64,000 nt of DNA from Longimicrobiales bacterium (lineage in GTDB: Bacteria; Gemmatimonadota; Gemmatimonadetes; Longimicrobiales; Gaopeijiaceae). Shown one piece after another: positions 34,130-61,484 of the stretch (its first letter is position 1; each line of letters starts with the position of its first letter). The DNA is taken from NCBI GenBank assembly GCA_965238005.1, contig OZ250165.1, forward strand, positions 1,920,001 through 1,984,000. The letters run 5' to 3'. The translations under genes and the position numbers were made by a program. The notes below the pieces were generated by a model. It did not search any database. It saw only the letters and a list, made by a program, of their open reading frames with translations, and was not told the DNA's origin.

Positions 34130-36640
34130 ATGAATGCGATTCGCATTGTCACCCGAGTCGGCTTGAGGACGTGCTCCACTACGTTTATTGCCCTCCTTGT
34201 CCTGTTCGGATGCCGCGGCAACTCTAGTGACGTGGGCATGGGCGAAGTCGTCCTCGCCGAGTACCCCAGCGTGGATGCCAGCTTTCTCTCGGCCCTCGAG
34301 TGGCGGTTCGTGGGGCCGTACCGTGGAGGGCGTGTCGTTGCGGTGGCCGGAGTTCCCGACGACCCCCTCGTCTACTATTTCGGCGCTGCCCACGGCGGAG
34401 TGTGGAAGACCACCGATGCCGGAAGGTATTGGCGGAACGTGTCGGGCGGCTTCTTCAAGTTCCCTTCGGTGGGTGCCCTGGACGTGTCACCCTCCGATCC
34501 CGATGTCATTTTCGCGGGGACGGGTGAGGGGCTTCAACGACAATTCATCTCGCCCGGAGACGGGGTCTACAAATCCACCGACGGAGGAGACACGTGGACC
34601 AACGTGGGCCTTCGGGAGACCCGGCACATCGCCAAGCTCCGTATTCATCCAACCAATCCCGATATCGTGTACGTGGCGGCCATGGGGGACATGTTCGGCC
34701 CAAACCCGGATCGCGGCATCTATCGAACCACGGATGGAGGCGAGACGTGGGAACGCATCCTGTATAAGGGCGAGACTACCGGTGCGGTGGATCTGTCTAT
34801 TGATCCCACGAACCCGAGGGTGATCATCGCATCCCTGAACCACCACGTGACGTACCCGTGGGACGAGGAGAGCGGCGGCCCCACCACCGGCCTTTTCAAG
34901 ACCACAGATGGCGGGGACACCTGGACGGACATCACCCGCAACCCCGGTATGCCAGAGGGGCTGATCGGGAAGATCGGTATATCCATCTCACCGGCGCGCT
35001 CCAACCGGGTGTATGCGTTCATCGAGGCTGACGAAGGCGAAGGCGGGATCTATAGTTCCGATGACGGCGCGTCCACCTGGCAGAGGACGCATCAAGACCC
35101 CGGCGAGATGGAGATCCCCAATTCATACAACCACATCACCGCCGACCCCCAGGATCCCGACGTCGTCTATATCCAGCCCATCACCGGTTTACTGAAGTCC
35201 ACGGACGCGGGCCGGACCTTCAAACGTGTACGCATGGAGAACTGGGACCCTCATGCGTTATGGATCGATCCAAACGACTCTCGCCGAATGATCGAAGGAG
35301 GGGACGGAGGGGCCTCGGTGACGTTGAACGGAGGTGAGTCCTGGTCGAGCCTCGAGAACCAGCCCACCGCAGACCTTCTCAGTCTGGCGGTGGACGACCA
35401 GGAGCCCTACTGGCTCTACGGCTCTCAGAACGACAACAGTCACATCGGGATTCCAAGTCGAACCGACGATCGGTCCATCGGATGGACGCACTACCTTCCC
35501 ATTCCGGCCGGCGAGGGCGGGCAGACGGCGGTGAAGCCCGACGGCAGCGTGGTCTATGCAAATGATAGGTCCAGGATGGTCCGTTTTGACCGGGAAACCG
35601 GGCAGGCTCCGCACATCAGCGTTTGGCCCGAGTGGGTGTTCGGAACGCCCACCAAAGACGTGAAGTACCGTTTCTACTACTCGTTCCCAGTGCTCCTCTC
35701 GCCGCACGATCCTGGCGTTCTCTACACGGCGGCCCAGTTCGTCTTCCGATCCACTGACGAAGGCAGCTCCTGGGACCAGATCAGTTCCGACCTCACGCGG
35801 AACCGCCAGGACGTGATGGGCGAAATATCCGGAGGGCCCATTAGCTCCAATGCGTCCTCGCTCTTTCACGTGAGTCTCATCCGGAGCCTTGCCGAGTCTC
35901 CCCTCCAAGAGGGGGAGCTCTGGGTGGGCACCGACGACAGTACCGTTCAGGTTTCGCGAGATGGTGGCCGCAATTGGCGCGACGTCTCGCCGCCGGATCT
36001 TCCGGAGTGGACCACGATCACGGCCATCGACGTATCTCCCCACCGGCGGGGGACGGTCTACATCTCCGGAGAACGGCACAGAGTGAGCGATCGCACGCCG
36101 TATCTCTACAAGACCACGGACTACGGCAGCACGTGGCAGCGGATCACGAACGGGATTCGGGAAAACGACTACTCGTGGGTCATCCGTGAGGATCCGGTGC
36201 GGCCGGGTCTCCTCTACGCGGGAACAGAAACTGGCGCGTACGTCTCCTTCGACGCCGGGGACTCCTGGCAGTCCCTACAGCGCAACCTGCCGCCGGTGAT
36301 CGTCATGCAGATGCTCGTGAAGGACGACGACCTGGTGGTGGCGACCCATGGGCGGGGCTTTTGGATCATGGATAACATCTCGTCCCTGCGTGGCATCACG
36401 CCCGAAGTCGCCTCGGCCCCGGTGCATCTGTTTGAAGTAGTCCCCGCTCTTCGTCAACTTCGGGGAGGGAGAGGGTCGACACAGACGGGACCTTCGGACG
36501 CAGCGAGGAACCCGCCGAGGGGGGTGATGATCGAATATTTCCTGGCCCAAGCATCCACCGGTGACGTGATGTTCACCATCACGGATGCGGGCGGCGAGAT
36601 CATCCAGCAATTCTCCAGCGGGTCGCAGGAACGCCGTAGC
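34130..36640 (+). pseudogene. BNR/VPS10-repeat glycosyl-hydrolase-like lipoprotein, N-terminal part (split by inversion)
   Basis: WRFVGPYRGGRV, repeated KSTDGGDTW Asp-boxes, ATHGRGFWI; continues in frame at 61221 on the minus strand. Confidence 0.88.
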
Positions 36641-36960
36641 TGTACCGTTTTCGGAGTAGCCCGCGGCGATCAGAAAGTCGACGTAGCGCTGGCACGCTGG
36701 GTGGAGCTCGGGGCCCAGATCGAGAGACCTGGCCTGGGCGTGCGCCTCGAACCAGTCGAGCTCGACGTCGAGGGCCGAGAGGCCCGCGATCAAGGCGCTC
36801 TGCCCCGGCCTGGGCGTCTTCGCGACCGTCAGGGACGCGAAGACGGCAAACCCTCTCACGAACAGGTAGTCCTGCACGAGCCAGCGGCTGAACGCATCCT
36901 CGGGCAGCGAGCCGTCGCCGACCGCGTTCAGGAACTCCGCGCGTGTACCGAGATCCCGCA
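36641..36960 (-). pseudogene. tenA: TenA-family (TenA_E-like) N-terminal half
   Basis: FLNAVGDGSLPEDAFSRWLVQDYLFV...ELDWF...YVDFL; bounded by IS IR scraps. Confidence 0.8.
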
Positions 36961-37008
36961 AACCGGAACCGGTTTAACTGTTCATGATAGCGTTGAGTCG
37001 ATGGTTAA

Positions 37009-37290
37009 GTGGAGCGGCCACGGCTCAGGCAACGAGGCCGAGGTGAGGGAGGCGAGGTCGAGGTGCCGGCGTACGAAGCGATGAGGAGGCCGGGGCGGCT
37101 GGCGGACCGGATGCTCGAGATCCTGATGGCTGGGGTCAGCACGCGGAAGTACGGCCGGGTGATCCCCGAGATGGCCGACACGGTGGGGGTGAGCAAGTCG
37201 GCGGTGAGCCGAGAGACGATCGAAGCCTCAGAGCGGGTGCTGAAGGAACTGATGGAACGGCGCCTGGACGCGTGGGACCTGCTGGTGATC
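37009..37290 (+). mobile_element. IS256-family transposase fragment
   Basis: ERPRLR, GVSTRKY, GVSKSAVSR, ERRLD. Confidence 0.8.
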
Positions 37291-37810
37291 CGGGGCATCG
37301 GAGAGAAGTTCGCGGCGAACCCTGTCGCCTGCAATCGCCGTCTAGGCGCCTTCGGGATTTATTCGGCATCCTGGGTAGGCCGGAGCGTCCTCGTGGCTTA
37401 GAGGGCCGTTATCGTCGCGTCCTTGTCTGGGCGAACGGCAAGCGTGCACATTGGCCTGGCAACGGCCATGGGTTCTTTGTCCCTCCAAGGACAGGAACGA
37501 GATGGATGGAAGTTCAGCAAGAAGGTCGGGTCGGTGAGCGCCGAGGACCTGATCGGCGCGGCGGCGGAGAGAGACGGATCGGCAAGGGACGCCGTATCTG
37601 GAACCGTCGCATCAATGAGGTTCCTGTAGAGGACGACCAGCGTGAGGCGGTTCGCCGTATAGGTTTCGGCCTCCATCCTGCCAGGTACCTGTCAGCCAGA
37701 GCGAACCTGGCACCCCCTCTAGGTAAAGCCGAAGCACGTCTCGGTGTGCCACGCGGCGCTCCCGCAGCCACCCTCCTTCCCAATCAGGACCAAAGCTTCA
37801 TGGATTGACG

Positions 37811-37839
37811 TTGGAGGGTCCACGGCGAACCCTCCAACC
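37811..37839 (-). terminator. Hairpin downstream of lemA
   Basis: TTGGAGGGT / ACCCTCCAA stem. Confidence 0.55.
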
Positions 37840-37851
37840 CGGCTTCTTCAA

Positions 37852-38406
37852 TCACTCAAAACTCACAGTTGGCACGTCTCGCACTTCTTCAGACGTGACT
37901 TCGAAATACTCTCGCGCCTCGGCGCCGGTCGCCTTGGCGGTCAGCACTTGCGGAAATCGCCGAATGAAACCGTTGTAGGTTCGCACAGCGTCATTGTAAT
38001 CCTGCCGCGCCGTTGCAATTCTGTTTTCGGTGCCTTCCAACTGAACTTGCAACTCCATGAAGTTCTGGTTCGAACGCAGTTCCGGGTATGCCTCGGATAT
38101 TACGAGCAGGCGTCCCAGCCCCTGCGTAAGAGACTGATTGGTTTCCGCCATCTGGCCCAGGTCTCCCGATTGGATTGCACCACCCAGGCGGGAACGAGCC
38201 TCGGCGATTGAAGTGAACACTTCCTCTTCTTGATCGGCGAAGCCCCGGACAGTTGCGACGAGATTGGGGATCAGATCAGAACGCCTCTGCAGTTGCACTT
38301 CTATCTGACTCTTGAATGCGTTGATCTCTTCGTCGTAGGTCTGAATGCGGTTGTAGCCGCAACCACTCAACGAGACGAGGGCCAATCCAATTACTACGCG
38401 CTTCAT
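37852..38406 (-). CDS. lemA: LemA family lipoprotein
   Basis: LSGCGYN lipobox, QRRSDLIPNLV, EAYPELRSNQNF, EGTENRI. Confidence 0.93.
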   Translation of the reverse strand: MKRVVIGLALVSLSGCGYNRIQTYDEEINAFKSQIEVQLQRRSDLIPNLVATVRGFADQEEEVFTSIAEARSRLGGAIQSGDLGQMAETNQSLTQGLGRLLVISEAYPELRSNQNFMELQVQLEGTENRIATARQDYNDAVRTYNGFIRRFPQVLTAKATGAEAREYFEVTSEEVRDVPTVSFE

Positions 38407-38441
38407 ATAATGATCTCCTTGGTAGAAAACCCCATCGGTCG

Positions 38442-39155
38442 TCATGCCTGGTCTACGTAGTTGGTCAACTTCTGTATTTCATCCACGTAGCGTGCGGCAA
38501 TAGGGTCGTCACTCCGGAGGGCTTTCACCTTGTCTCCCGCAATCTTGTCGACGACCCAACCAAAAGCTCCTACATCGAGGCCCGCGATACTCGCTGCCTG
38601 TTCAACAAGTCTTGCCGGCTTCGCCTCGGGCGTCTGACCTTCGAGACGCACCAGCGCCCTCATCAAAACGAAGAAAGTCGAAGCCGAGTCGATCAACAGT
38701 CGCGTCAAGGCTCTCCCGTTTGGGGCGAAAGCAGCGTGCTGAGCTCGCAGCTGTAGAAGTTTGCCCCGAACCTCCCGCTCCAATTCCTGGCGAAGGTCAT
38801 CCCTGTTAATGACAATCCCCTCGAACGGATCGGTTCCCGCAACGAGTTTGTGTGCTTCCCTCATATCCTCGATTTCGATTGGGAAGACGTCGGTCGATCC
38901 TTCCCATTCCACTCGCTCGAAAATAAGCGGGGCCGCATTTCCTTTCTTGACCCATGCAGCAAGTGATTTCTCGATCGGTCCAATCGCTTCGGTTGACGCG
39001 TCCTCAACCATCACCATGATGTTCACTTCCTGGTGCGCGGGTGCGTAACCGCCACGTATTGCCGTACCGAATAACATCATCGACTTCAGGTTTTCGCCCA
39101 GGTCGGTGGCGATCTGCGCTGCGACTTTTTCTGCCTGCTGTATCTTGTCCGCCAT
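38442..39155 (-). CDS. Nucleotidyltransferase-like protein of lemA/TPM loci
   Basis: LFGTAIRG, DVFPIEIEDM, LRQELERE; genomic context. Confidence 0.7.
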   Translation of the reverse strand: MADKIQQAEKVAAQIATDLGENLKSMMLFGTAIRGGYAPAHQEVNIMVMVEDASTEAIGPIEKSLAAWVKKGNAAPLIFERVEWEGSTDVFPIEIEDMREAHKLVAGTDPFEGIVINRDDLRQELEREVRGKLLQLRAQHAAFAPNGRALTRLLIDSASTFFVLMRALVRLEGQTPEAKPARLVEQAASIAGLDVGAFGWVVDKIAGDKVKALRSDDPIAARYVDEIQKLTNYVDQA

Positions 39156-39158
39156 TCT

Positions 39159-39929
39159 CTAAAAGCCCCCTGATGAGCCGCCACCACTGAAGCCACCTCC
39201 GCCTCCGAAACCGCCAAAACCGCCGCCGCCGAAGCCGCCACCGCCGAAGCCGCCACCGCCGTGGTAATGGCCTCCTCTTCCCCCGCTAAGCAACATGCCG
39301 AGCAGGAGCCACCGGCCCGATCCTCGTCCGCCGAATAGGAAGAACACGACAAGTAACAGCAGCCAGGAGTAGCTTACTCCTGTGCGCCCCGACGGCCGTC
39401 CTTGCGGGATCGGTCGAGCGGCCTGGCCCGTCAACGTCACACCGAATTCTTCGGCGTATTCTCGCGCGAGCAGCTGAACACCGACGGCGAGACCCTCGGC
39501 GTAGCTCCCTGATCTCGTCGCGGCTTCCCCAATGGCATCGCGAATCCGCAGGGTTTCAGCGTCCGTTATGAATCCTTCCGCGCCGCGCCCGGTGGATATT
39601 GCGAGATCGGCCGTGCCGTCCCCCGGCCGTTGACCCGGTACCAGCAGCAGAACCACTCCGGCATTGCTCGCCTGCGATCCCGCTCTCCGTTCTGCGCCCA
39701 CGCCCCACTGGCGTCCGATGTCACGAGCGACATCGATCGACGCTCGACCTTCCAGGTCCCGCAGAGTCACCACGGCGATTTCACCGCCTGTTTTCTGTTG
39801 GACCTCGGTTATCAGGGTTGTCATCGCCCCTTCAAGGCGTGAATCAATCAAGCCAGCGAAGTCGTTGACGTAGCCCTGTGGGGCCGGTATCTGCAGCTGA
39901 ACTGCTATGACCAGGACGTTGAGTAGCAT
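39159..39929 (-). CDS. TPM-domain protein with Gly-rich tail
   Basis: GYVNDFAG, EIAVVT, WGVG, TM helix, GGGFSGGGSSGGF. Confidence 0.88.
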   Translation of the reverse strand: MLLNVLVIAVQLQIPAPQGYVNDFAGLIDSRLEGAMTTLITEVQQKTGGEIAVVTLRDLEGRASIDVARDIGRQWGVGAERRAGSQASNAGVVLLLVPGQRPGDGTADLAISTGRGAEGFITDAETLRIRDAIGEAATRSGSYAEGLAVGVQLLAREYAEEFGVTLTGQAARPIPQGRPSGRTGVSYSWLLLLVVFFLFGGRGSGRWLLLGMLLSGGRGGHYHGGGGFGGGGFGGGGFGGFGGGGGFSGGGSSGGF

Positions 39930-40067
39930 CCGATAATTATAACCGTCCGTTGAACGCGCATCCTGCAATCCCGGCGTGATGTCGGAATGCAACACACCAC
40001 CTGAGGCCACCAAGTCGACAATACCCTTGTCGAGTCGGCTGATGCGACACCTCAGTCCACGACTTGA

Positions 40068-42273
40068 CTAACTGCCTAGCCATGCCTGCAGAAAGGCCTT
40101 GATCTGGTTCCCCCAAAGCATGCTCAGGAGTGCGACGGTGAGCAGAGCGGCCAGTAGGGAAACCAGGCCCACACGAGTCCAACGAAACGCGCCGTGTCCG
40201 GTCTGGCGTAGAAAGAGGGTGACCAGGTCGCGCCGTTCCTTGCGTACCCCTTCGGGCAAGTGGGGCGTGTGGCTGAAGAGGTAGCCGAGCCGTCGCGTCA
40301 TGTACATGCGGAAATTCACCGCCCAGCCGCACGCCTCCAACAGAGCGCTCATGTCCCGCTTGCGAAGCTTGTTCCAACCCGAAAGTGCACTGAACAGGGC
40401 CACCACCAGCAGCAGGGTCACCAAGACAAGGGCGGCGTTCAGAGGGTTGATCGTGGAAAGTGTGTCGAGCAGGTAGACCAGCGAGGAACCGACGGCTGCG
40501 AAGGCAATGCCGCCGGCCAGCACCAGGTCGCGCATGCCAGAGCCGGAAGGGGGTGCCGCTCCCGCCGACGGCACCTGGGCAGGCTGCTGGAGCGACTCGC
40601 CTTTTTCCATCTTCGTTGTGATCTCGGTGGTGGCCTTTTCCAGGTACCCGGCCCGGGTGCCTGCAAAGGCTTCAAGCTTCTCGGATAATAGCTCTTTGGC
40701 TTTCACAAAAGGCGATTTGATGGCCTCCCACAGGCTGATGGGGTTCTCGACCATATCCACCACTCGTGCGTCCCACTCCTTGCCCTGGAGGTCATAGAAG
40801 ATACCGCGCTTGCCGATTTCGATGGCCCCCTGGCCGCCACCCGTGAGGGCGGCGGCAATCTCGAAACTCCGGCGCTGCTCCTGGGAAACCAGTGATCTCG
40901 GCGTACACCAGGAACATTTTGCTGGCTTGGGCGATCTTCTTGTGCTCGGTGCGGTTTCGGACCTTCATTGTGAAGGCGAGTTCACGGCCGTCAATGATCA
41001 GGTTGCCCAATTCAAACAGGGCACGGCGCCTGGGGTCGTACAGCGCGGAGAAACTCACGAAGTTGTTGGCCAGTTCCAGGAGCCAGCGCTGGTACAGGGT
41101 GAGCTTCTCCAGGGCAGCCACTTGCTTCACCTCATCCTTCACCGCCAGATCCTCCAGCAGGAGCTGGAGAAGTTTTTTCTGAGCCGGACCATACAAATAT
41201 TCTTTCAGCGTGGTCTCACTCAGCTCACCTACGCCATCCGATGGCTTCTCCGCCTGCCACGCACAGTAGGGCTCGAAGATGGCCTTGACCCGCTGCCAGC
41301 CGATCCGCGTGAGAGTTTCGTGGGAGTCCGGCTGGGCACGGGCAAGGACCCGGTTTTGTAATTCGTCCATCTGATCCTGGTAGTACGGATTGACGGGGCC
41401 CTCCAAATTCAGCACGCCTTCAGCATTTGGCGTTTGCAGTGGCGCTTGCGCGAGCTGTCTTTCCGTGGCCCGGAGGTCGGAGCCGTCCAGGTTCTCGAGA
41501 GCTTGTTCACTCAGGCAGAACCGTTCGGCGGTGCGGGCATCGAGCTTGACCAGGTCGCACTGCCAGAAGAACTGATCGATCTTGGCATCGAATTCAGAGG
41601 TGAGCTCCACGGCGGCCGCCGTGTCGTCGCCCCAGGGCAGAATCCCTGCCGCGCCGTCATCTTCGGCGAGTGCCTTCCAGGCCAGATACTTCCTCGCACC
41701 ATCCAGGAATTGGCTCAGGTGACCTTCGTTGATGCCGTCTGCGCCACTTATATCCTTGGTACCGCCCACCTGCTCGAGTACGTCATTCGCCAACTGTGCG
41801 GCAGCCGGATCCGAAACGTGCTGGGGGGGGAGCACGCCGTCGCCGTTGGGGGAGGTCATCCCGTACGTATTTCGAAAGATGCGCACCTGTTCCAGGCCGA
41901 TCTCGTCCAGGTTCTCCACCTGCAGTTGTGCCAGGATATGGATCGCGGCTTCCTTGAGCTGCCGGCCCTCCTCGTGGCTGGTATCCAGGTCCGCGAGCTG
42001 CAGGACGTCTGAGGAAGCCGCCATTCGGTCGCGGTTTGCCATCATACGTAAGATCCATGTCACTGCCGCCCGCAAATGCTCGGCACGGATGGTCCCGCTG
42101 CCGTCCTGATTCAAGTACTCGAGGAACGCAGGATCGCACTGTAGGCTCTCGATCTGCACGCTGGTAGCGGCCCAGCGAGCTGGATGGAGCTGGCGGATGA
42201 AGGCAAGATCCTCCGCGCTCTCGATGCGCAGTTGGTGGATCCCGCCGTATTTTTGGAAGACCATGGGCTTCAT
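40068..42273 (-). CDS. Large uncharacterised protein with C-terminal TM helices; +1 frameshift at ~40887
   Basis: Two ORFs join by removing one T (GGTTTCCC), giving ...GKRGIFYDLQGKEWDARVVDMVENPISL... Confidence 0.65.
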
Positions 42274-42894: not shown

Positions 42895-45800
42895 TCAGTA
42901 GCCTACAACGGCGCTTGCGACTGCCCGGGGCTGTGGCTCCAGGGCGTAGACGTTGCGCTCGTAGTCCCGGTTGTAGGGTGAGATGTTCAGGGTCTCGCCG
43001 TCCACGACCAGGGTGGCACTGCCACCGGGGTCGAAGCCCATGGCGGTGCGCATGCCTCGCGCCCGCAGGATCTCCGCCATTTCCACGTGTGTGGCGCCGA
43101 CGGACTCGCGGATCCGGCCGTTGACGACCAGCACGGCGAGGTTTCCTTCGTCGTCGAGACCGATGGCGATCTTCGGCCCCCGCATGTCGAGGTAGTCGAG
43201 GCGTGCCGCCTGAGTCCGAATGGAATTCGACGTGGTCCAGCCCTCACCGTCCATGTCGATGCAGACCTCGCCGCCCGCGAGCAGCATCGGCCCGGCTTCG
43301 ATGGCGCTGGCGACCCCGGACAGGCCGTTGAGTTCGAGCGTGAGCTCCCGACCCTCGGTCCATCCTACGGGCAACTCTCCCTTGGGAAACGAGAACACCA
43401 GACCCACCGGGAGCACGGGCACGGCCTCGCCGGGGTTGGTCGAACGCATCTCCATGATCCGAGTACCCACCAAGCGAACGATGGTCCGACCGTCGCCCGG
43501 AAATGACTCACCGGCGTAGAGAAGATCGTAGAAACAGGGCGCTGGGCCGGGGGATGTCGGGTTGCGGCTCTCGGCGGGGAATTCGACGACGGCGCGGCCG
43601 AACCGGGCGCTCAGGCCCGACGCACAGCTGACCCGGCGGATGCCGAGCGATCGGTCTTCCGACACGACGAACGCCGGCTTGTCGAAGAGTGCCGGGCTGA
43701 GCATACGGCCTTGGGACACGATGAGACCGAGGGGCGAGCCGACGTACGATTCCGGTAGGCCGAGCTTGCCCACCAACTCGGCATTCAGGATATAGCCACC
43801 GTTCCAGGCGATCCGTGCTCGGCGGCGGGGCGATCGGTTGAACTTGCGAACGAACTCGGGAACCGTCTGGCTTCCCGCCTTGGCCGACAGGATCGAATAG
43901 CGCAGTCGACTGTCGGCGGCGACCCGCGCGATCACTCCCGACCAGGGACAACCATCCTCGTACACACCGTTGAGGCCCTCGGATTCGACGGGCCCTCGCC
44001 TCGACCGTTCCGACCGGCTCAGTCGCGAGAACACGACTTCGACGGGGGAGCCGCAATCCTCAGCATCCTCTCGTAGCGCGGTCAGGACCGTGTCTCTGCC
44101 CATCCGCTTGCACAGCCGTCGAAAACGCCGGCTGCGAAGCGTGTCACTCAGGGACTTCGCAGTCTGCACCGGTGTCGGATAGGCCAGGGCGCAGCGGAGT
44201 CCGCCAGGAGCCCACTGCACGAAGCCAGTGCCGATCGGAATGCCGAGGATGTTGGCGGTCAGGGGATCGTCTGCCCGACCGACGTGGAAGCGCTCGAGCG
44301 CGACTCCGTCGGTGGTCATCGCTGCCTGGGCGCACAGGGCGATGACGAATCCCTTCCGCTGACGAATCTCAACAAGGCTCCGAAGTGCGGCCTCGCCGAG
44401 TTGCCTGAAGTCGATCCCTACGGAGAGCTGACTGCTCCCGACGACCCGGCAGATCCCCTTATCGTGTAGCAGCTGGAGTTCCTTGTTGGCACCGCTCTTC
44501 AAGTGTGCCTCGAGGGAGGCGGCGTCCAACCCGCCAGGGAGCGCTTCCTCGCGCTCGATGATGGTGATCGGGGTAAGACGGTCCAGGCGGCTCGGCGGGG
44601 TGGCAGAGAGGTTCTCGTGTATCCCAAGACCAAGACGAATCCGGGCTGTCTGGAGCACGAAGACCTCGAGCTCGTGCTCGGTGCGATCACCCAGGAAGAG
44701 CGCGAACGGCACGTTCTCGCTCAAGCGCGCCAGCATGGGCTTACGGTCATCGATCCTGAGCGGCCCCCCGCAGCACCGGGCGACCATCTGGTTCCAGTTG
44801 GCCAGCTGGTGTGCGATCTCTTCCGTCACCGGGGACGATTCCCACGGACCGAACATCTCGTGATCGAGCAGTACGATCACCGCGGTGAGCTCCTGTGGCG
44901 TCAATTCTCGGTACCGGTAATGCCAGCGATTGCGGTGCCGGTACGCTAGCGAATGATCGATGCGAATCGGCATCTCGCCGGCACGGATCAGAAACAAGCT
45001 GTCGACCCTGTTGAAGAACTCGACTTCATCCAAGGGGTCGAGGCACGTGACGCGGCTCCGACTGGCCACCAACCCGCGAGCGAAGGCGTAGGCCATGCCG
45101 CGATTACGCTGCTCCTCGACGCGGAAGTAGCTGGGGTCGATCAGCGACTTGAGCATCAACATGAAGCCCATGCGCCCAAAGCCAGGGAGATACTCGCGGC
45201 GCCTCGTCGCGAGCAGCCCGGCGAGACTTGGCCCCGGGGCACGGATCCGGTCGGCGAATCTGTCGAAGGCCGCGCCAGCCTTGGCGATCGCGGATTCGCT
45301 CGAACCCAGCTGGTGGTGCAACCGACGCAAGAAGCCTTCCAGATCACGGGCCAGCCCCTGCAAGCTGAATCTTCTCTGGATGACCCTGCGGTTGTGCCGG
45401 TTGACCTCCGAGAGTTTCTCCGGAGCGAGGAGGCACTCCCGCACCTCAGCAATTACCTCGGACTCGAGTCGCCACCCTTTGAACATGCGCACGTCCAGAC
45501 GGTCCTCACGGGCCAGGTTCTCTCCGATGACAGCGGCGAAGACCTCCTCTGGTTCGTAGCGCCGCGTGAGGATCGGGACGCCGCACGCCGCTGACTCGAT
45601 GATCGGCAGGCCACGACCCTCGGCCTCGCTCGGCAACACGACGAGCGTCGAGATGTTGTAGAGCACAGTTTAGCGCCCCCGGTTTCTCTGGACAGTAGAT
45701 TGGCAAAGAGAGCGGGTCCAGAGAGAAAGGGACGTGATGGCCCAGAAGCCGAGGGAAAAGAAGGCGACCGAAGGTCGTGAGAAGGTACCCGAGCGGTGGA

Positions 45801-48393
45801 GCGCACAGCATAAGACGGAGGTGGTGCTGCGCCTGCTGCGGGGGGAGGATCTGGTGGAGGTCAGCCGCGAGGTGCAGGTCTCACCACCGGAGTTGGAGGA
45901 ATGGCGGCGGGTGTTTCTGGAGACCGGTCAGCAGGGGCTGAGGCGCCGGGGCCGGGACCCTGGAGAACGAGAGCTGACCCGGACCCAGGCGAAGCTGGGA
46001 GAGTTGACGATGCGACTGGAGCTTGCGAGAGAGCTCCTGGAAAAAAGGGGGTACGGGGACGAGCTACGGACGCTCTTGAAGCGTGGACGCGAGTGAGTCC
46101 GGGGACCGGGCGGCCCTACCCTCTGACGATGATCTGCGAGGCCTGGCGGGTGGGGCGCTCGACGGTCTATGCGGCCCGGGATCGAGAAGAGAGCGAGGGG
46201 CCGGCAGAGCCGAAGAAACGAGGACCGAAGACGAAGCTGAGCGACGAGGAGTTGGTAGAGGAGATCCGACAGGTGCTGAAGCAGAGCGACTTCCTGGGCG
46301 AGGGTCATCGAAAGGTGAGGGCGCGCCTGAGGCCGAAGGGGATCCATGTGGGCAAGAACCGCGTGCTCAGGCTGATGCGGGAGAATGGGCTGCTGGCCCC
46401 TGTACGACGCGGGAAGCATCCGCATGGGGACCGGAGCCACAGTGGCCGGATCACGACGGACGTGCCGAACGAGCTGTGGGGCACGGACGCGACGCGGTTC
46501 TACACGAAGGAGGATGGGTGGTGCTGGTTTTCGTGGCGGTGGATCACTGCGTCACGGACGTGGTGGGCTGGCACGTGGCGAAGAAGGGCGATCGGTGGGC
46601 AGCGCTCGAGCCGATCCGCCAGGGCGTACGGACCCACATGGACGACTACGCGCCCAAGATCGCTCTGGGGCTCGGCCTACGGCACGACTGGGGACCGCAG
46701 TACACGGCGCATCAGTTCCAGGGGGAGCTGGCCTGGCTCGGGATCCGCTCGACGGCCTCGTACGTGGGAGAGCCGGAGTGCAACGGCGTCGCAGAGCGCT
46801 TCATGCGGACGCTGAAGGAGGAGTGCTTGTACCTCCACGACTTCAAGAGTCTCGAGGAGGCCAGACAGGAGATCGACGCGTTTATCGAACGCTACAACCG
46901 CGGGTGGCTCCTAGAGCGGCATGGGTATCGGACCCCGGCCCAGGTCCGTCAGGAGCTCACCCTGAAGGCGGCTTGATTAGGCCGCCGACTTGTCCAGCAA
47001 ACCGGAACCGGTACTCCGGTATCTCGATCGGTCGGTCGTAGCGTTCTCGATACGAAGGGTGGTCGAATTCGCTGAACAGCAGTGCGAGGTAGATCCGGGA
47101 CCGAATCGACTCGTCGACCTTCTGCACGAGCCGGGCGAAGTCGCGAACCAGCTTCTCGAGGTACTTGTCGTTGCCAGTAGCGACCGGACCGGAGATGAGC
47201 AGCGTGAGCTTCCGCGACTTGTCGGCCCGCAAGGCCGCGGCAAAATCGCTGTCGGCCAACAGGCTGGCGATCAGGGTGAAGTTGAACTCGATTCGTTTCC
47301 GCGCGAGGATCCGTGTCGGCTGCAACAGAACCATGTTGTTGCCGACGAAGTCGACTTGGGACTGATTCTTCGCGGCGATCAGGATCGGGCGGCGGGAGTC
47401 TGGCGCGAGCAGGCCCTTCTCGATAACGTCCGCGGCGGCGACAGCCTGCAGGCGCGTTCGAGTTCCCGTGAGAATCTCACACAACTGGTGCCACACCTCC
47501 TTCGTCTGGCCCCGATCCATGGGCGTGTAGCGATCCACGTCGATACCCGTGCAGATCTCACAGACGTTGGCCGGATTGAGTCCGAATCGTTCGCTGATAG
47601 AGTCCGCCTGTTTGGAGTTGATGCAGACTGTGAGCCAGCTTCGGGCATCCCAGGGGTACAGCACCTCGATCAGTGAAAACACCTCGCCCACGTGGACGTT
47701 GGTGAAGAAGTGATCTCGCGGTCCACGCGGGAGGCCCAGGACCTCGCGATCGATCTCGCTGTGCCCGCTCTCCCAGTAGAAGTCGTGGCAGTTGTTGATC
47801 ACGGGGACGCGGAGGTGCTCGGAGATCAGAACCGTTGCCAGGGCGAGGGCGGGATTGCCCGGGTTGGAGTTCACGTTGACCAGGTAGAGCAGTTGGATGT
47901 CGTTCGCCTCGACAACTCGCCCCAGTCGCTCGCAGAGCTCGAGAACCGCTTCCCAGAACCTCCGGATCAGCTTGTTGTACAGGGGGCTGCCACGTTCGAG
48001 TCTGCGACCGAAGAAGCTGCGATACAGCGGCCAGCGGTCGAAACCGTCCATCGCATCGATCTGGTGCCACGGCGACTCGGGATCGATGATGCTCTCCGTC
48101 AGTTCGGCGAACTCGCCTGCGATGTAGTGGATTCTGGCGCCTCGTAGCAACGCGGCGAACGTACGCGCGTACTTGGCGACCTCCATCGTCACCCCATCGA
48201 CTCCGTAGTTGAACGTCACGAACGCGACCCCTCGTGCGACACGACGCTTGAACTCCGCGAAGTCGCTCTCGACAGCGATGCCCGCCGGCCGATTCTCTCG
48301 CAAGCGGTCGATGAGCAGGCCGAGATCGAACCAGGTCTCGACATTCTCGGCGCGCAGGTCCGAGATCATCCGTTCGGTACGGGGGTGGGCCAT
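42895..48393 (-). pseudogene. ~1382-aa GT4 glycosyltransferase - unknown domain - phosphodiester glycosidase (NAGPA-like) fusion, interrupted by IS3 copy 2
   Basis: DGVTMEVAKY, HDFYWE, PTRILARKRIE, EGRGLPIIES; C-terminal WNGGY, AGPMLL, GPKIAIG, VNGR, FDPGGSA; IS removal gives IPE-LYN in frame. Confidence 0.8.
45665..47014 (+). mobile_element. IS3-family element, copy 2 (permuted ends; orfB frameshifted at ~46530)
   Basis: Starts ACAG then IRL (45669-45694); ends ...CCGGTAC; orfA 45737-46096; T4 instead of T5 in orfB. Confidence 0.93.
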
Positions 48394-48429
48394 CGTGTTT
48401 TGGAGGCTCGGAGCTGGCAGCCTACCCTG

Positions 48430-48472
48430 GGGGGTAACTCAGGCGGAGACTAGGGGGTAACTCAGACGGAGA
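48430..48472. repeat. Tandem 20-bp duplication of the GT gene 3' end
   Basis: GGGGGTAACTCAG(G/A)CGGAGA twice, 23-bp period. Confidence 0.6.
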
Positions 48473-53842: not shown

Positions 53843-53867
53843 GAACAGCACAAGCGAGGCGACACTC

Positions 53868-55086: not shown

Positions 55087-56454
55087 ATGACGAAAGACGA
55101 CTTAGCTCAAAAACGAACACAATGGGAATTTCTTATCCTCGGTTGCATGTTTATAGGCTACATGGGATTCATTCTCTCTAGGACAGCTCTCCCAGTTGCA
55201 AGCCCGGAAATGTTAAAAGATCCGACGCTCGGACTTGACGAAGCCAGCTACGGGGATATTGCAGCCTGGGGAATGGCGGGAATGATTACGGGAAAACTCC
55301 TTACCGGAGTGATCGCAGATTGGCTCGGTGGACGGAGAGTATTCTTAGTGGCTCTCTCTATCACAGCCCTGCTCACAGTTACCTTTAGCTGGGGCACCTC
55401 TGCTACCATCTTTGCCAGTATAAACTTCCTTTTGCTGTTCGCAATGGCAGCAAGCTGGCCCTCCATGGCAAGTATCATTTCGGTATGGTATCCCTCGACA
55501 AAATATGGAAGAGTGTGGGGAATGCTTTCAGTCAGTTCTCGTCTTGGTGCTTCCTTATCAATGATATTGTTGGGAACGCTGCTCACAGTGTTCTCCTGGC
55601 AAAATGTATTTCGTACTGCTGGAGTCGTGGGTCTTTCCGTAGTAGCATGTATCTCTTTCTATCTAAGAGCGAACCCAAAGGATGTTGGGCTTCCAGCTTT
55701 AGAGGATCAAGTCGCGCCAGAAGGTTCTGATAGACAAGATGAACCAAATACTGAACAGAAGGCACCTCACTTTCTAGACGACAAGAATCCAGCCGAAGCA
55801 CTATGGGCTTTCGCAGGAAGCGGACGTTTCTGGCTAATATGCTCGAGTCTTATGTGTACGACCATATTAATGGACTTTATCCTTTTTCTGCCGCTTTATC
55901 TTACTTCTTTTGAAGGAGTATCGTCTGCTCAGGCCGGTTCTTGGGCCTCCGCATTTCCAATCGGATGTTTGGTTGCCTTGGTTGGGGCAGGATTCATGTA
56001 TGACAGCGTCTCACGAAAGGGAAGAGTCGGTCTCTTGGGTGGACTATTGGGAGCTACCTGCGTTTGCGTTGCAGCACTGTGGAGTTTGAAGGGACTGCCG
56101 ATGATTCCGGATTCTTTCAAATTTCCGCTTGCGATTATAATCCTGTTCTTTTACGGATTCACACTTGCTCCAGCATACTATCTGCCAGCGAGTGTCTTTT
56201 CTAATGAATTTGGTGGAAAACACTGCGCTCTCTTAGTAGGGCTGGTAGATGTTGCTGCCTACTCCGCTTCAATGCTATATCTCATTGCAGGGGGTAGAAT
56301 GGTTATGAATTGGGGTTGGCAGAGTATGATTCAGTTATTCTTGGTGATAGCTGTATTGGCAACCCTGATTACAATCTGGTTCGCCTTCGAAGATTACAGA
56401 CGTTTCGTACCAACCGTCGGGGAAGGTCAGCGTCTAAGTTTCGTTAGCACCTGA
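55087..56454 (+). CDS. MFS transporter (GlpT/UhpT-like), visibly lower GC than its surroundings
   Basis: About 12 TM helices, GVIADWLGGRR motif A, WYP...GRVWG. Confidence 0.85.
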   Translation: MTKDDLAQKRTQWEFLILGCMFIGYMGFILSRTALPVASPEMLKDPTLGLDEASYGDIAAWGMAGMITGKLLTGVIADWLGGRRVFLVALSITALLTVTFSWGTSATIFASINFLLLFAMAASWPSMASIISVWYPSTKYGRVWGMLSVSSRLGASLSMILLGTLLTVFSWQNVFRTAGVVGLSVVACISFYLRANPKDVGLPALEDQVAPEGSDRQDEPNTEQKAPHFLDDKNPAEALWAFAGSGRFWLICSSLMCTTILMDFILFLPLYLTSFEGVSSAQAGSWASAFPIGCLVALVGAGFMYDSVSRKGRVGLLGGLLGATCVCVAALWSLKGLPMIPDSFKFPLAIIILFFYGFTLAPAYYLPASVFSNEFGGKHCALLVGLVDVAAYSASMLYLIAGGRMVMNWGWQSMIQLFLVIAVLATLITIWFAFEDYRRFVPTVGEGQRLSFVST

Positions 56455-56525
56455 ACGCGTCCAGGGGAGCCGATGCTTGGCTTCCCACCCCTCATTCGGA
56501 CTTCCCGGTGGGAACCGACGCAAAC

Positions 56526-57284
56526 TCAATGGCCAGCAGTCGAGCCACCATCAATCGGTAACGCGGCACCAGTAACGAAACGTGCCGCGAATGAAGCCAG
56601 ATAGAGGACCGCCTGGCTGATCTCGGCTGGCGTTGCAATGCGCTTCAGCGGTGCATAGTCGATCATCCTCTGCTCTGCGGCGGCTGGGTCGTCTTTCTTG
56701 TCGATATGGTCGCGGCGGATCATGTCGGTATCGACATAACCCGGGCATACGCAATTGACCCGTACGTCCGGCGCTACTTCCAACGCCATGGCCCGGGTCA
56801 TGTTTACGACCCCACCCTTTGAAGCGCAGTATACGGTGATCCCTGGCACCCCTATCAGCCCGGCATCCGAGGCGATGTTGACGATGTTGCCATCGGATTT
56901 GCGCAACGCAGGTAACGCCGCACGACAACAGAAGAATGTGCCTTTCAGATTGACGTCGACGTGAGCGTCCCACATCGCCTCGTCAGAATCTTCAATGGGT
57001 CTACCAGCACCGACACCGGCGCTGTTCACCAGGATGTCGAGGCCGCCGAAGGCGTCGATCGCAGTCTCTACCACTGACTCGCAGCCGGGAACCGTTCCAA
57101 TATCGCCGGGCGCCGCGACCACGTGCTCACCACCGCCCAGTCTATCGATGGCGGCGCTCACGGATTGCTCTGTTCTGCCGTTGAGGGCGACACGAGCGCC
57201 AGCGTCGACAAAGGCTTCTGCAATGGCAAAACCGATACCCCGACTGCTGCCCGTCACCAGGACCCGCTTGTCCGTGAAGTCCAT
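56526..57284 (-). CDS. SDR oxidoreductase
   Basis: TGSSRGIG, NSAG, YCASKGG, PGYVDT, IDGG. Confidence 0.92.
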   Translation of the reverse strand: MDFTDKRVLVTGSSRGIGFAIAEAFVDAGARVALNGRTEQSVSAAIDRLGGGEHVVAAPGDIGTVPGCESVVETAIDAFGGLDILVNSAGVGAGRPIEDSDEAMWDAHVDVNLKGTFFCCRAALPALRKSDGNIVNIASDAGLIGVPGITVYCASKGGVVNMTRAMALEVAPDVRVNCVCPGYVDTDMIRRDHIDKKDDPAAAEQRMIDYAPLKRIATPAEISQAVLYLASFAARFVTGAALPIDGGSTAGH

Positions 57285-57433
57285 GTCGTTCCCTCCGCTT
57301 CTATTGAATGACTCACTTGAACACTTCGCCAGCGCAGATCAGCGAACAGGCGACGGCGCGACCCTGGGCGGCCCCGTCAGCACCCTTCCCACCGCGCGTG
57401 GACCGGAGCGGGCCGCGGACTGGGGGCACCAGC

Positions 57434-58414
57434 TCAAGATGTACAGGTCGTGAGCTTCGCTGCGCCCACGCCGAACTCTACCGCTGTGCGGTCTGGGCTC
57501 ATCCGGGCGATGATGGCCATGATCAATGTGAGACCGACGAAGACTCCTTGCATCTCGACCAGATACCAGCGCCACTGGCTCAGCCCGTAGACAAGGAGGA
57601 CCATAGCGATGCCAACGGCGGCTAGGACCAGCTTGTGCGTGGTCGTCATCGGAGGATGGTCTACCCCGGCCTCTCCATCTCCGCCACTGGAGATCGACAC
57701 GCCTTCGGGCGCGCTCACGTCGGCCACCAGGCTCGCCGCCGGATCCCGCCCCACCTTCTTCGCATATGACCAGACGTGGTGAATGCCAATCGGCAGGAAG
57801 ACGACCATGAGCGCCACGCGGTACCAGAGCCCCGATGCGGGTTGGAGTCCTGCGATGTCCTGGGCGATAAGAACGGTGAAGGGGTTGATGAGGGCAGCGC
57901 CGTAACCAACGCCGTACCCAACCATGATGATCCCCACAGCCGTGATCCTGTCGTATCCAAGGGCGAGAGCCAGGGTGATGAGGACGGGTACGAAGGGAAA
58001 ATACTCTTCGCCGAATCCGATGGTGCTCGACCCAACAGCGAACAGGAGAGTTCCGCCGGCCACCAACCAGAAGGGTCGGTCCCCCCAGCGCCTGAGGAGG
58101 GCTCCCATACCGGCATCCACGGCCCCCGTGGCCCGAAGAACGGCGAATGCACCCCCTATGATGAAGACGAAGAAGATGATCTCGTGTGCTCCGCTGAAAC
58201 CCTTGGGAATGGCTGTCAGGCTGGCCGCAGGCGACAACGCCGGAGCATCCGGGGTGAAGTGGAAGCTGCCGGGCACCACCTGGAGTCGTCCGGCGGCATT
58301 CTCCACCCGCTCGAACGACCCGGCGGGAAGCAGGTATGAGAAGACCTGGGCCAGGATCACCATCCCGAAGAGGAGAACCAGAGTGTGTGGGACCTTGAAT
58401 CTGCCTTTCGTCAC
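57434..58414 (-). pseudogene. YfcC-family transporter, C-terminally truncated
   Basis: PHTLVLLF, PAGSFER, NPFTVLIAQ, SGLWYR; ends abruptly after GAAKLTT. Confidence 0.75.
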
Positions 58415-58498
58415 AATGGAATCTTTCTTCCCACACTTGCGGCCATCCTTTGACGGAACGGGCACGCAACCGTTCGCAGGGCGCTATGAACCGGAATG

Positions 58499-60511
58499 TC
58501 AGCCCTTCACGTATTTGTCGAACCAGGCGAGAAAGCGCTCGAGCAGGTCCTGGTGATAGATGGGCCGACGGATGCCGTGGTGTGCGTCGGGGTAGACCAC
58601 GAGCAGGGTCTCGCGGCCCAACCGCTTCATCGCCTGGTACATCTGCTCGGAGTTGATGATCGGGACGTTCCAGTCCTTCTCCCCTCCTATCCAGAGCGTT
58701 GGCGTGGTGATGTTCTGGACCTTGTTGAAAGGCGAAACACTCTCCCAGACCTCGCGGCTCTCCCAGGGCAGGCCGAGCTCCGCCTCGTACCAGTCCTGGT
58801 AGACGTCGTGGCCGTAGTTGGTGATCCACAGCCCGTTGCCGGCCCCGGAGACGGCGCCCGCGAAGCGATCCGTGGAGGTGATCACGTAGTTCGTGAGGAT
58901 GCCTCCGTACGACCAGCCGCCAATGCCGAGCCGTTCGGGGTCGGCGTAGCCCAGCTCCACGACGTGGTCGGTGGCGACGAGCACGTCCTCGGCGTCGTGG
59001 GTGCCCCAGGCGCCCCAGTTCGAGAGTGTGAAGTCGAGCCCCCTGCCTCCGGATCCTCGAACGTTCGGCATCACGACCACATAGCCGTTGGCCGCGAAGA
59101 GCTGCACCCGGAAGTTGAAACCATAGTCGTACTGCGCCTCCTGGCCGCCGTGAAGCCAGAGCAGGGTCGGGTAACGGAGATTCGGGTCGAAGGACGGCGG
59201 CTTGTAGACGAAGGCCTGGATCTGAGTTCCGTCAAGGGTGGGGAAGCGCTCCTCCTCCGCGTCCGCCAGCGCGATCGTCTTCAGCAGCTCCTGGTTGACG
59301 TGCGTGAGGCGGCGTAGCCCCGAGGAGGCGGAGGGCTCGGCATCGAGGACGAACAGCTCGGCCGGCAACCGGGGCTCGCTGACGAGGGCGACGACGGCGC
59401 CGTCGGGTGCCACCGTGGCCGCCTCCACCCGGCGTCGTCCGGCGATCGGCCGGCTCAGGCTGCCGCCGTCGACCGACACGGCGGCCAGATGGACCTGGCC
59501 CCAATCCTCGAGCAGGACGTAGACGCTGCCCCCGTCGGGCGCGAAATGCGGTTGGTAGACCTTCCGGTCGAGGGACTCCGTGAGAAGCACGGGCCCGTCC
59601 TCACCGACACGGATGAGCGCTAGTTTCGTCTGCAGGTAGCCCTGGGGGATCTCGGGCCGGGTCGTCGTGATGTAGGCGAGCCGCTCGCCGTCGGGGTGCC
59701 AGACTGGCCCGTCGTCAGACCCGGGGTTAGAGGTGACCCGGACCGGCTTCTGCCTGTCGTGGGGGATGTCGGGCTTCACCAGCCAGATGTCGCTGTTGTA
59801 GTTGGCGTCTGGCTCGTCGGTGCGGTTGCTGGTGAAGGCGATCAGGCTCCCATCCGGAGACCAGGCCGGACCGGAGTCCTCATAGTCCCCGGAGGTGATC
59901 TGCACGGTGGCCTTCGTCTCGACGTCAAAGACATAAAGATGGGCACGCAGACGATTCAGATAACCCACATAGTCTGCCTTGAACTGCAAGCGGTCGACCA
60001 CCCAGGGCCCTGGGCCCTCCTCCTGGCTCTGATCGCGGATCAGGAGCACGAGTCGTTTCCCGTCGGGCGACCACTCGTAGCCCTCGACTCCCTGCTTGAC
60101 ACTGGTGAGCTGAACGCGCTCCCCGCCGCGTAGGTCCAGGGTGAAGACCTGCGAGCCCTGGTCCCCGCTGCTCGCCATGAAGGTCAGGTACTCGCCGTCC
60201 GGGCTCCACCTGGGCCGCCCGGCGGAGCTGCCCTTGGCCGTCATGGGGAGGGCCTCGCCACCGGCGGTCGGGACCATCCATAGCCGCGTTTCGGAGCGGT
60301 CATTCTCGAGGTCTTTGGAAGCGACCGTGTAAGCGACCCAGGCGCCGTCTGGGCTGATGCGCGGGCCGCCCACGCTCTTCAGGGCGAAGTAGTCATCGAC
60401 CTGGAGATGACGGAGAGCGCCGGCATCCTGGGCCAAGGCCTGGGACCCCGCGTTCGCGTCTAGCAGCAGGAACGCGAGCAAAGTGAGCTTGATCAACGAA
60501 CGCGCTCTCAT
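58499..60511 (-). CDS. S9 family (acylaminoacyl/dipeptidyl) peptidase with TolB-like propeller
   Basis: WSPDG repeats, HGG, GWSYGG, GEKDWNVP, YPDAHH. Confidence 0.92.
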   Translation of the reverse strand: MRARSLIKLTLLAFLLLDANAGSQALAQDAGALRHLQVDDYFALKSVGGPRISPDGAWVAYTVASKDLENDRSETRLWMVPTAGGEALPMTAKGSSAGRPRWSPDGEYLTFMASSGDQGSQVFTLDLRGGERVQLTSVKQGVEGYEWSPDGKRLVLLIRDQSQEEGPGPWVVDRLQFKADYVGYLNRLRAHLYVFDVETKATVQITSGDYEDSGPAWSPDGSLIAFTSNRTDEPDANYNSDIWLVKPDIPHDRQKPVRVTSNPGSDDGPVWHPDGERLAYITTTRPEIPQGYLQTKLALIRVGEDGPVLLTESLDRKVYQPHFAPDGGSVYVLLEDWGQVHLAAVSVDGGSLSRPIAGRRRVEAATVAPDGAVVALVSEPRLPAELFVLDAEPSASSGLRRLTHVNQELLKTIALADAEEERFPTLDGTQIQAFVYKPPSFDPNLRYPTLLWLHGGQEAQYDYGFNFRVQLFAANGYVVVMPNVRGSGGRGLDFTLSNWGAWGTHDAEDVLVATDHVVELGYADPERLGIGGWSYGGILTNYVITSTDRFAGAVSGAGNGLWITNYGHDVYQDWYEAELGLPWESREVWESVSPFNKVQNITTPTLWIGGEKDWNVPIINSEQMYQAMKRLGRETLLVVYPDAHHGIRRPIYHQDLLERFLAWFDKYVKG

Positions 60512-60585
60512 GGCAACTGGCCTCTCTAGTTAGTGTGACGAGTCACGCCAGCACCTGCGGGGCCCTTGAATTGCCTATCCCTCCC

Positions 60586-61226
60586 TCAGGGGGACAGCAG
60601 AGGTTGAACCTCTTGCTCAATGACCTGGTTCAACCGGTTCCGTTGGACCTCGAAGCGTTCCGAGAGGTTCTCGAATACCGCGTACATCGATTCCGTGGGT
60701 CTGGCATCGGCCGCGCCGACAGCCCTTGAGAGCGAGCTCAGCTTTTCGGTCAACCCCGGGGGGCTCCACATCATGGGGTGAGCCTGGGACCCCATCCATA
60801 TCGTGAGAATGCCCTCGATCTCCCTCAACTGCTTTAGGATCCCGTCGGCCTCGACCCTAGAATTCTCTGGTAGCTCAGCCTGACGCCCGTCAACCTGGGC
60901 TCGGACTTCTCTGATCCTGATCACGGCGTCGGCCACTTCCGAAAACCGATCCCGGAGGTCAACCATGAGCTCGAACTGGGCCCTGAGATCGGCGTCGCTG
61001 GCCTTTACTCTCGGGTCTTTCCGAATCTCGAAAGGCTGCTCGTAAGCCTGTCCGCCCACAGAGAGTCGGACGATGTATCGTCCGGGAGGCGCAGTCGGCG
61101 ATGCGGGCGGTGAGTAATCGATGCTCAGGAAACCGTCCAATGCTCCAGGGGACGGGGGCATCTGGGTACCCGGATATCGCATGTCCCAGAAGAATCGGCT
61201 CATTCCTGCCCTGGTGGAGGGGCTAC
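60586..61226 (-). pseudogene. BNR/VPS10 hydrolase C-terminal part (inversion partner of 34130-36640)
   Basis: PSTRAGMSRFFWDMRYPG...PPGRYIVRL...KDPRV...QFEL; in frame with the N-part through shared GTAGC. Confidence 0.85.
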
Positions 61227-61241
61227 TTTAGCGCCCCCGGT

Positions 61242-61484
61242 TTCCAGGTGCTGCTGGCACTCTTCTACGGCGTCGAGGTGGCCTATACGGTCGCGTGGGG
61301 TCGTCTTGAGGCCCAGGGGCCGTACGCCGAGTTTATCGCCCGGTGGACCCATGAGGACTTCCAAGCCTACGTGCGTGTCTTGTCGAGGCTCGTGGACGAG
61401 CATCCCCATCCCCGTCAGCAAGCGATGTTCAACGAGGTGATGCGCCATGAGCGGGATTTTTGGCGCATGACTTGGGAAGGCTGA
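61242..61484 (+). pseudogene. tenA: TenA-family C-terminal half (partner of 36641-36960)
   Basis: FQVLLALFYGVEVAY...FIARWT...HERDFWRM; preceded by the IS IRL tip. Confidence 0.8.

Follow-up and report, generated by a model that had tools for sequence, protein, structure and literature searches.

How can a chromosome carry the marks of a transposition at both ends of an inverted segment, and an insertion sequence (IS) at neither? The locus that raises this question lies in a window of 64,000 nucleotides (nt) from a Longimicrobiales bacterium (contig OZ250165.1 of assembly GCA_965238005.1, positions 1,920,001 to 1,984,000; G000:C1:1920001-1984000 in our numbering), whose genome is one 4.84-Mb contig of 64.8% G+C. 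In this window a gene for a BNR/Asp-box protein (annotated in other genomes as a glycosyl hydrolase, and called the hydrolase below) and a tenA gene are each split in two. Here we report that a single 24.6-kb inversion accounts for both split genes, and that the 3' ends of one right and one left inverted repeat of an IS (IRR and IRL) were joined to the hydrolase gene, cut with a stagger of 5 bp. We tentatively suggest that a 1347-bp IS3-family element supplied the transposase that initiated the inversion, acting on a resident IS copy whose body was lost on resolution.

The two genes and the joints between them comprise the following parts (position 1 is the first letter of the window).

34079 to 36640, + strand: N-terminal part of the hydrolase gene, 854 codons, of the BNR/Asp-box sortilin-VPS10 type (PF15902, PF02012, PF13088), ending after GTAGC
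36636 to 36640, + strand: first copy of the target duplication, GTAGC; an intact hydrolase allele needs one copy only
36641 to 61226, 24,586 bp, no strand assigned: inverted segment, seen from the restoration of both genes on flipping and from GC skew
36641 to 36650, + strand: reverse complement of the IRR tip, TGTACCGTTT, foreign to tenA, its outer end touching GTAGC
36651 to 36953, - strand: N half of tenA, about codons 21-122, 97% identical to an intact paralogue (PF03070)
36954 to 36975, + strand: second IRR-derived scrap, a 19/20 match to the IS right end, at which the alignment to the tenA paralogue ends
60589 to 61221, - strand: C-terminal part of the hydrolase gene, 211 codons, matching the C termini of relatives' proteins and residues 838-1048 of the intact allele P0001
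61222 to 61226, + strand: second, inverted copy of the target duplication, GCTAC, identified from the joint sequence and a frame test
61227 to 61241, + strand: IRL tip, 15 nt foreign to tenA, its outer end touching GCTAC; identity to IRL continues to 61244
61242 to 61484, + strand: C half of tenA; the genes after it remain collinear with those of the paralogous locus up to 63245

At the left joint, GTAGC (36636-36640) is followed by TGTACCG at 36641-36647, and at the right joint GCTAC (61222-61226) is followed by TTTAGCGCCCCCGGTTTC at 61227-61244. Read as GTAGC-TGTACCG and GCTAC-TTTAGCG, the joints carry the duplication once each, in inverted orientation and touching the outer IS tips; the tips lie against GTAGC and its complement because the 3' ends of IRR and IRL were joined to the staggered cut. 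The initial annotation had recognized TGTACCG as the reverse complement of the IRR tip, with which the sequence and the IS right ends agree; over 36641-36650 the match to that tip is exact for 7 nt and 9/10 overall. The 18 nt of identity to IRL that it reported after GCTAC also hold, with the correction that only 15 nt are foreign, the closing TTC being native tenA as well. With up to 3 mismatches, this 18-mer occurs in the window only at 61227 and at the left end of a complete IS copy at 45669 (0.02 occurrences expected by chance), and the 15-mer at the IRL tip is found at only 10 places in the 4.84 Mb, 8 of which are IS ends. An IS copy is absent from each joint: the IS-derived bases number 10 nt and 15 nt, and tenA sequence follows directly. 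GC skew is +0.017 inside the segment versus -0.004 to -0.044 in the flanks, a contrast consistent with a fairly recent flip.

On the hydrolase side, the unbroken gene can be seen in P0001, an intact 1048-residue (aa) allele from another assembly that was found by protein search, is 98% identical and reads SQERRSPSTRAGMNRFFWDMRY in the joint region. Identity of the N piece (residues 18-854) to P0001 residues 1-837 is 820/837 (98.0%), that of the C piece to residues 838-1048 is 206/211 (97.6%), and the pieces meet exactly at residues 837 and 838 with neither gap nor overlap. Because they do so, GTAGC/GCTAC is a genuine 5-bp inverted duplication. When the pieces are joined with one GTAGC the frame stays open (...SQERRS-PSTRAGMSRFF...) and aligns without indels to a 1040-aa homologue, and when both copies are retained it is broken. 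The in-frame join after SQERRS and the inverted 5-bp duplication, both proposed in the initial annotation, are thus borne out, provided that one GTAGC is dropped, and the check proposed there, alignment of the rejoined protein to a homologue, gave a contiguous match. Proteins of 1040-1100 aa whose C termini match the C piece were found in 20 of the 30 relatives searched.

On the tenA side, the reference lies in the same genome: 36651-36957 (-) and 61242-63245 (+) match one contiguous locus, 1544616..1542369, at 97% and 93%. In G002, a genome of the same genus, the tenA halves are 4 nt apart; flipping the segment puts the N half before the C half, as had been claimed, in the order seen in both the paralogue and G002. 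Compared base by base with the paralogue, the native site is TCCGA-GCCG-TTCCAG, and the flipped window tenA reads TCCGA-AAACGGTACA-TTTAGCGCCCCCGGT-TTCCAG. Here 25 foreign bases (10 nt of the IS right end and 15 nt of its left end) stand in place of 4 native ones (GCCG), a net gain of 21 nt that keeps the frame and turns the peptide YSE-P-FQ into YSE-NGTFSAPG-FQ; the next TTC is common to the IS and native tenA. It is new relative to the initial annotation that the tips replace GCCG, stay in frame and lack the inner block of the inverted repeat (IR), and that a tenA allele with the junction was not found. That block, common to IRL and IRR at about positions 11-26 (CCGGTTT..CTGGACA), is missing from the IRR scrap, and the IRL scrap retains no more than its first 5 bases.

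The orientation of the scraps is informative. tenA joins the inner, IS-body side of both, and the hydrolase with its duplication joins the outer tips, which marks the hydrolase as the strand-transfer target and tenA as either the donor side or a sequence joined later. At the joint of IRL with the tenA C half 3 nt (TTC) are shared, and at the other joint there is either CGG after a mismatch or 3 filler bases (TTT). The shared TTC and the 4-nt loss at the inner sides form a pattern of microhomology joining, not of transposase chemistry. A by-eye likeness of the native tenA and hydrolase sites to the IS ends was rejected, as 7628 and 16161 of 20000 random genome positions score equally.

A tenA with the 7-residue insert is absent from the 4 closest cluster representatives, all of which read YSEPFQ. 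Three of these clusters have 51 members, of which 28 were listed; each of the 27 full-length proteins among the 28 (at least 199 aa) has a length of exactly 200 aa, and a length of 207 aa does not occur. In a search of 300 genomes of the family, 11 others had a close tenA, in each case with a frame of native length, and two exact-pattern scans of metagenome contigs for the joint sequences or the pre-inversion DNA came back empty. We treat the absences of the insert as weak evidence. Public related tenA genes are frequently truncated, and four different 78-aa products share a start Val just past the break site. Next to the C half, a second TenA-like gene at 61492-62132 appears as two overlapping open reading frames (ORFs; PF03070 positions 5-64 and 95-180) and is probably frameshifted.

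The tips belong to an element of 1347 bp, two copies of which lie in the window.

31401 to 32749, + strand: IS copy 1, circularly permuted (IS 8-1347, G, IS 1-7), with an IRR-G-IRL junction at 32735-32749
45669 to 47014, + strand: IS copy 2, of IS3-family type with a full left end, inside the segment, with orfA/orfB, the A6G motif and no visible target duplication

In this element orfA encodes a helix-turn-helix (PF13518/PF01527) and orfB an rve-type DDE domain (PF13683/PF13333), and an A6G-type frameshift motif, AAAAAAG, lies at IS position 373 within the orfA/orfB overlap. The top NCBIfam match for both ORFs is the IS3 model NF033516, with scores below the cut-off because orfA and orfB were scored separately. 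With its orfA/orfB arrangement, DDE domain and A6G-type motif, the element can be assigned by its predicted ORFs to the IS3 family. Besides fragments, there are 11 copies in the genome that are complete or almost complete and share 99.8-100% identity. In 7 of 13 matches that extend to the right end, IS copy 1 included, this end reads ...CCGGTACA and closes with ...GGTACA. Terminal inverted repeats of the IS3 family end 5'-TG...CA-3'. The left end here starts with TTTAGCG, not TG, in every one of the 7 copies whose left tip is intact, as it does in 3 related elements from Gemmatimonadetes metagenome-assembled genomes (MAGs), and the left end of IS2 is similarly atypical. A scan of genome contigs (596 Gb) with the IRL 18-mer, for which chance alone would give about 17 matches, returned 3 related IS ends from Gemmatimonadetes MAGs besides 4 matches outside IS, and the element was not found in the congeners G001, G002 or G005. 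Target duplications, 3-5 bp in the IS3 family, are visible at two IS copies only, both of 4 bp (CCCT at 2500600 and TCAT at IS copy 1); the other copies readable at both ends show none, and the tips of at least three copies are replaced or degenerate.

IS copy 1 interrupts a 258-codon gene with its 4-bp TCAT duplication. Within 31394-32753, TCATCGT stands where the first 7 nt of IRL would be, and G plus those 7 nt follow the right end; removal of the copy with one TCAT restores the 258-codon ORF, which has a signal-peptide-like start. This arrangement suggests that a minicircle with a 1-nt spacer was opened within IRL, 7 nt from its tip, and then integrated, giving a 4-bp duplication plus 3 additional bases (CGT). 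IS copy 2 interrupts a large glycosyltransferase/NAGPA gene (42898-48438, -) in frame, and its final base is T where A is usual.

IS-end scraps of this kind are present elsewhere in the genome. The inner side of the scrap at 36954-36975 is fused to about codon 21 of tenA and takes the place of the first ~20 codons; the 313-bp tenA N fragment is flanked on both sides by outward-facing IRR scraps. A solitary exact 15-nt IRL tip, TTTAGCGCCCCCGGT, lies at G000:C1:1670041-1670055 (L051:1242-1256) with the IS body absent. Taken together, the scraps and the replaced tips indicate that breaks a few bases inside IS ends are recurrent in this genome. At the 1670041 tip the coding frames differ on either side, and the length of 15 nt is that seen at 61227; no partner joint was found for it, and homologues of its flanking ORFs were found neither in 30 relatives nor in Pfam. 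The best of the CGGGC+TGTACC candidates for a partner, at 745539, is native sequence within an IS1595-like transposase gene and was rejected. Other solitary IRL tips, at 894479, 1068668 and elsewhere, have 2 mismatches and are no more frequent than chance predicts (about 9 expected versus 7 seen), which leaves the exact 15-mer at 1670041 as the only one; one of the mismatched tips lies in a poly-G frameshift of a CocE/S15-type gene.

The inversion could be an artefact of assembly or amplification, present in no cell, which we consider highly improbable. The joints were checked on Logan contigs. A 331-nt contig from run X20 bridges 36640/36641 with zero differences; this single bridging contig, possibly from the very sample behind the genome, leaves some room for a chimera, as do contigs from X21 (1 difference in 271 nt) and X22, which match to exactly 36640 and are then unlike the window for 158 and 351 nt. 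The divergence of X21 and X22 points to another arrangement at that position in other samples and fits the intact allele P0001; we infer that an IS-bearing allele would have matched for ~14 bases further. Chimeras do not produce a reciprocal pair of joints of this kind, with IS tips and a precise inverted duplication of 5 bp; the genome is a single contig, and in GC skew the segment has the opposite sign to both flanks.

How, then, could a transposase have made these joints without leaving its element behind? For a copy-out-paste-in element, transposase-dependent loss is described in the accessible part of 10.1101/2023.06.07.543989: synthesis primed in the flank runs a short way into the IS end before the strand switches template at 2-4-bp homologies, leaving scars that may extend into the IS. 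Under the explanation that we tentatively favour, a whole IS copy, we infer, was physically involved and most simply would then have resided in tenA, 24.6 kb off, with IRL towards the N half. Both of its ends would attack the hydrolase in the inversion sense, the 3' ends of the cut target would prime synthesis that fills the gap of 5 bases and copies no more of the IS ends than their outermost 10 and 15 bases, and the strands would then jump to flanking tenA sequence by way of very short homologies, TTC at one of the joints. Alternatively, Ku-type end joining might seal the four ends, a possible route because a Ku gene is present in the genome. The jump would yield A-GTAGC-IRR'tip-tenA-N' and hydC'-GCTAC-IRLtip-tenA-C, with the IS body and the four tenA bases (GCCG) dropping out; both IS-free strands would lie on the + strand of the window, and one round of replication would fix the IS-free inversion. 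The same product could also come from the mirror arrangement, in which the IS lay in the hydrolase and tenA was broken. One such event would explain the scraps on the target side, the joint absence of both IS copies and the loss of tenA bases.

Several observations weigh against this explanation. IS3-family elements are known to move by copy-out-paste-in, not by two-ended attack from a resident copy, and such an attack, or one by an unreleased circle, would be an aberrant reaction. Neither for tenA nor for the hydrolase did an IS-bearing allele turn up, and the resident copy is accordingly a putative one. The two readable ordinary insertions of the element have 4-bp duplications, versus 5 bp at the inversion. 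All genomic IS copies read AACCGGTACA where the IRR scrap has TGTACCGtTT, a mismatch that a fresh copy would not predict and that fits one only if filler bases or polymerase error are invoked. A match to PF09250, the IEE-type PrimPol, was not found in the genome. The tenA insert (+21 nt) is in frame, a 1 in 3 chance under a resident copy and expected for a tolerated junction relic, which mildly favours the latter.

Such a relic was in essence the mechanism of the initial annotation, an abutted IR-IR junction acted on in trans. The transposase signature and the inversion-sense geometry of that proposal stand; a bare junction in tenA as donor and in-trans action are conceivable but not the reading that we prefer. 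Action in trans had been deduced from the missing IS body, and the present absence of an IS is no proof of past absence, since IS loss with microhomology scars is described in the accessible part of 10.1101/2023.06.07.543989. Still, an in-frame 25-bp IRR-IRL relic lying in tenA without an IS body, cut and transferred by transposase supplied in trans, deserves weighing. The flipped tips abut without a spacer (...CGGTACA-TTTAGCG... in the in-silico reconstruction), within the range of 0-3 bp expected for such a donor and like a circle or dimer junction, the tenA frame is kept, a chromosomal IRR-G-IRL junction exists at IS copy 1, junction attack is established as a source of inversions in the accessible part of PMC9333248, and an extra loss event becomes unnecessary. 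We nonetheless regard this as rather unlikely, since only 10 nt (one mismatch) and 15 nt are present, the IR block common to both ends is missing, and the origin of the relic is itself a rare event that would have to be coupled with activity on very short ends; tips without the inner block are unlikely substrates on their own, and the insert-bearing tenA was found neither in the clusters nor in the 11 family genomes nor in the two metagenome scans. That the 25-bp mini-junction itself (10 nt IRR plus 15 nt IRL) was cut and transferred in trans is, in our estimate, quite unlikely; if true, scraps far below full IR length can drive large inversions, and IS-free genes can conceal active recombination sites.

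A stepwise history has every step in known biology: an IS in tenA, insertion of an oppositely oriented copy into the hydrolase to give a direct duplication of 5 bp, RecA-mediated inversion between the two, and two separate losses with microhomology scars of the kind described in the accessible part of 10.1101/2023.06.07.543989. The one-sided scraps at 1670041 and 36954-36975 speak for such losses, and the visibility of a target duplication at two IS copies only is as if flanks had been swapped by recombination; no pairs of swapped flanks were found among the genome's IS copies. We place this history second, after the resident-copy explanation, but think it unlikely, as it takes five events, with independent loss of both IS copies from one inversion, and both scars would have to retain the hydrolase-side tip and delete the tenA-side duplication. 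Survival of 11 copies against two or three scraps makes a double loss at one inversion unlikely. Finally, a two-break inversion by Ku/LigD could have occurred without transposase, the IS-like bases being left over from an older, unrelated 25-bp excision footprint in the hydrolase between direct GTAGC repeats. The Ku gene, the 4-nt loss and the possible 3-nt filler (TTT) resemble the conditions of end joining, and from the hydrolase side the scrap order is that of a classic excision footprint; this route seems improbable, given that a break is needed exactly between the two tips of the footprint and that the intact P0001 has none.

The setting of the inversion can be described more fully. The segment contains genes for LemA, TPM, glycosyltransferases, IS copy 2, OCD, PALP, MFS, a short-chain dehydrogenase (SDR), a truncated DcuC/YfcC, an S9 peptidase and the hydrolase C part. 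Two of these adjoin the hydrolase piece.

57437 to 58483, - strand: truncated gene for a DcuC/YfcC-family carrier, covering positions 2-317 of a 461-position profile
58502 to 60511, - strand: S9 prolyl-oligopeptidase-family peptidase gene, from profile matches

Flipping places the hydrolase, the S9 peptidase and the truncated DcuC/YfcC-family gene on one strand. The hydrolase-S9 peptidase-YfcC string that the first reading had rebuilt is thus right as to strand, but its last member is the truncated gene at 57437-58483 and not the 496-aa ORF at 57339-58829, which was rejected as non-coding (third-position GC, 0.48). The DcuC/YfcC-family gene is cut off at its meeting point with the SDR gene. 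In 10 loci with a hydrolase homologue, that gene is not followed by one for an S9 peptidase or DcuC, and the hydrolase/S9 region has no close DNA match in G001, G002 or G005, which makes congener synteny unusable for this side. A 399-nt inverted repeat of 91% identity (30596-30994 and 56896-57294) and further inverted matches (29258-29396/54652-54790 and 28845-28897/52267-52319) lie in the window, and beside IS copy 1 a truncated SDR fragment (30606-31106) is a paralogue of the full SDR gene in the segment. The genome is rich in IS: besides the IS3-type element it has one of at least 1.18 kb, seen near genome position 1670820, with 17 near-identical copies over that stretch and two fragments. 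It also has 11 copies of a 282-bp Mutator-family transposase fragment. Just beyond the second IRR scrap, 37009-37290 is a Mutator-family (IS256-type) transposase gene fragment with 88% identity to these 11 copies and to many copies in G001, G002 and G005.

Inversions driven by IS are usually recognized by the IS copies at their ends, and here the signature of transposition is present without the element, which suggests that some seemingly IS-free rearrangements are transposase-made. The signature can be searched for as a short inverted duplication with an IR tip of up to ~15 nt per joint. The locus is a natural case that connects two processes described separately so far: the attack of IS ends on a target in the same molecule, and the transposase-dependent loss of an IS through microhomology joining. 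In the accessible part of PMC9333248, attack by an IR-IR junction or by IS ends yields inversions, and illegitimate recombination, a very rare event, is the only way to an IS-free state.

Our observations resemble several known systems and coincide with none of them. As with the dimer and minicircle junctions of (IS30)2, (IS911)2, IS21 and IS2, IRR and IRL lie on one staggered target with a pair of inverted duplications, and, as in elements that form IR-IR junctions, the IS has orfA/orfB with an A6G motif and a chromosomal IRR-G-IRL junction; in those cases, as far as the accessible accounts go, whole IS copies stay at their joints, and here 10 or 15 nt remain at each. Inverted target duplications at the segment ends are also left by replicative inversion of the IS26/Tn3 type (PMC4471558, in its accessible part), which differs in family and chemistry and duplicates the element, so that the segment ends up between two inverted copies of it. 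RecA inversion between inverted IS copies is likewise IS-linked and common in IS-rich genomes, but it swaps flanks and splits nothing new, needs and keeps two IS copies, and creates no new duplication. The removal of the IS with retention of a few end bases and use of 2-4-bp homologies is like the loss of IS629 with IEE, of ISApl1 from Tn6330 and of IS30 by illegitimate excision, as portrayed in the accessible accounts, where strand switching in the course of transposition-linked replication is the proposed cause, although the PF09250 PrimPol that would correspond to IEE was not found in this genome. Those losses, in the same accounts, are local deletions of about one IS that restore collinearity, whereas here sites 24.6 kb apart were joined in opposite orientation, at both ends together.

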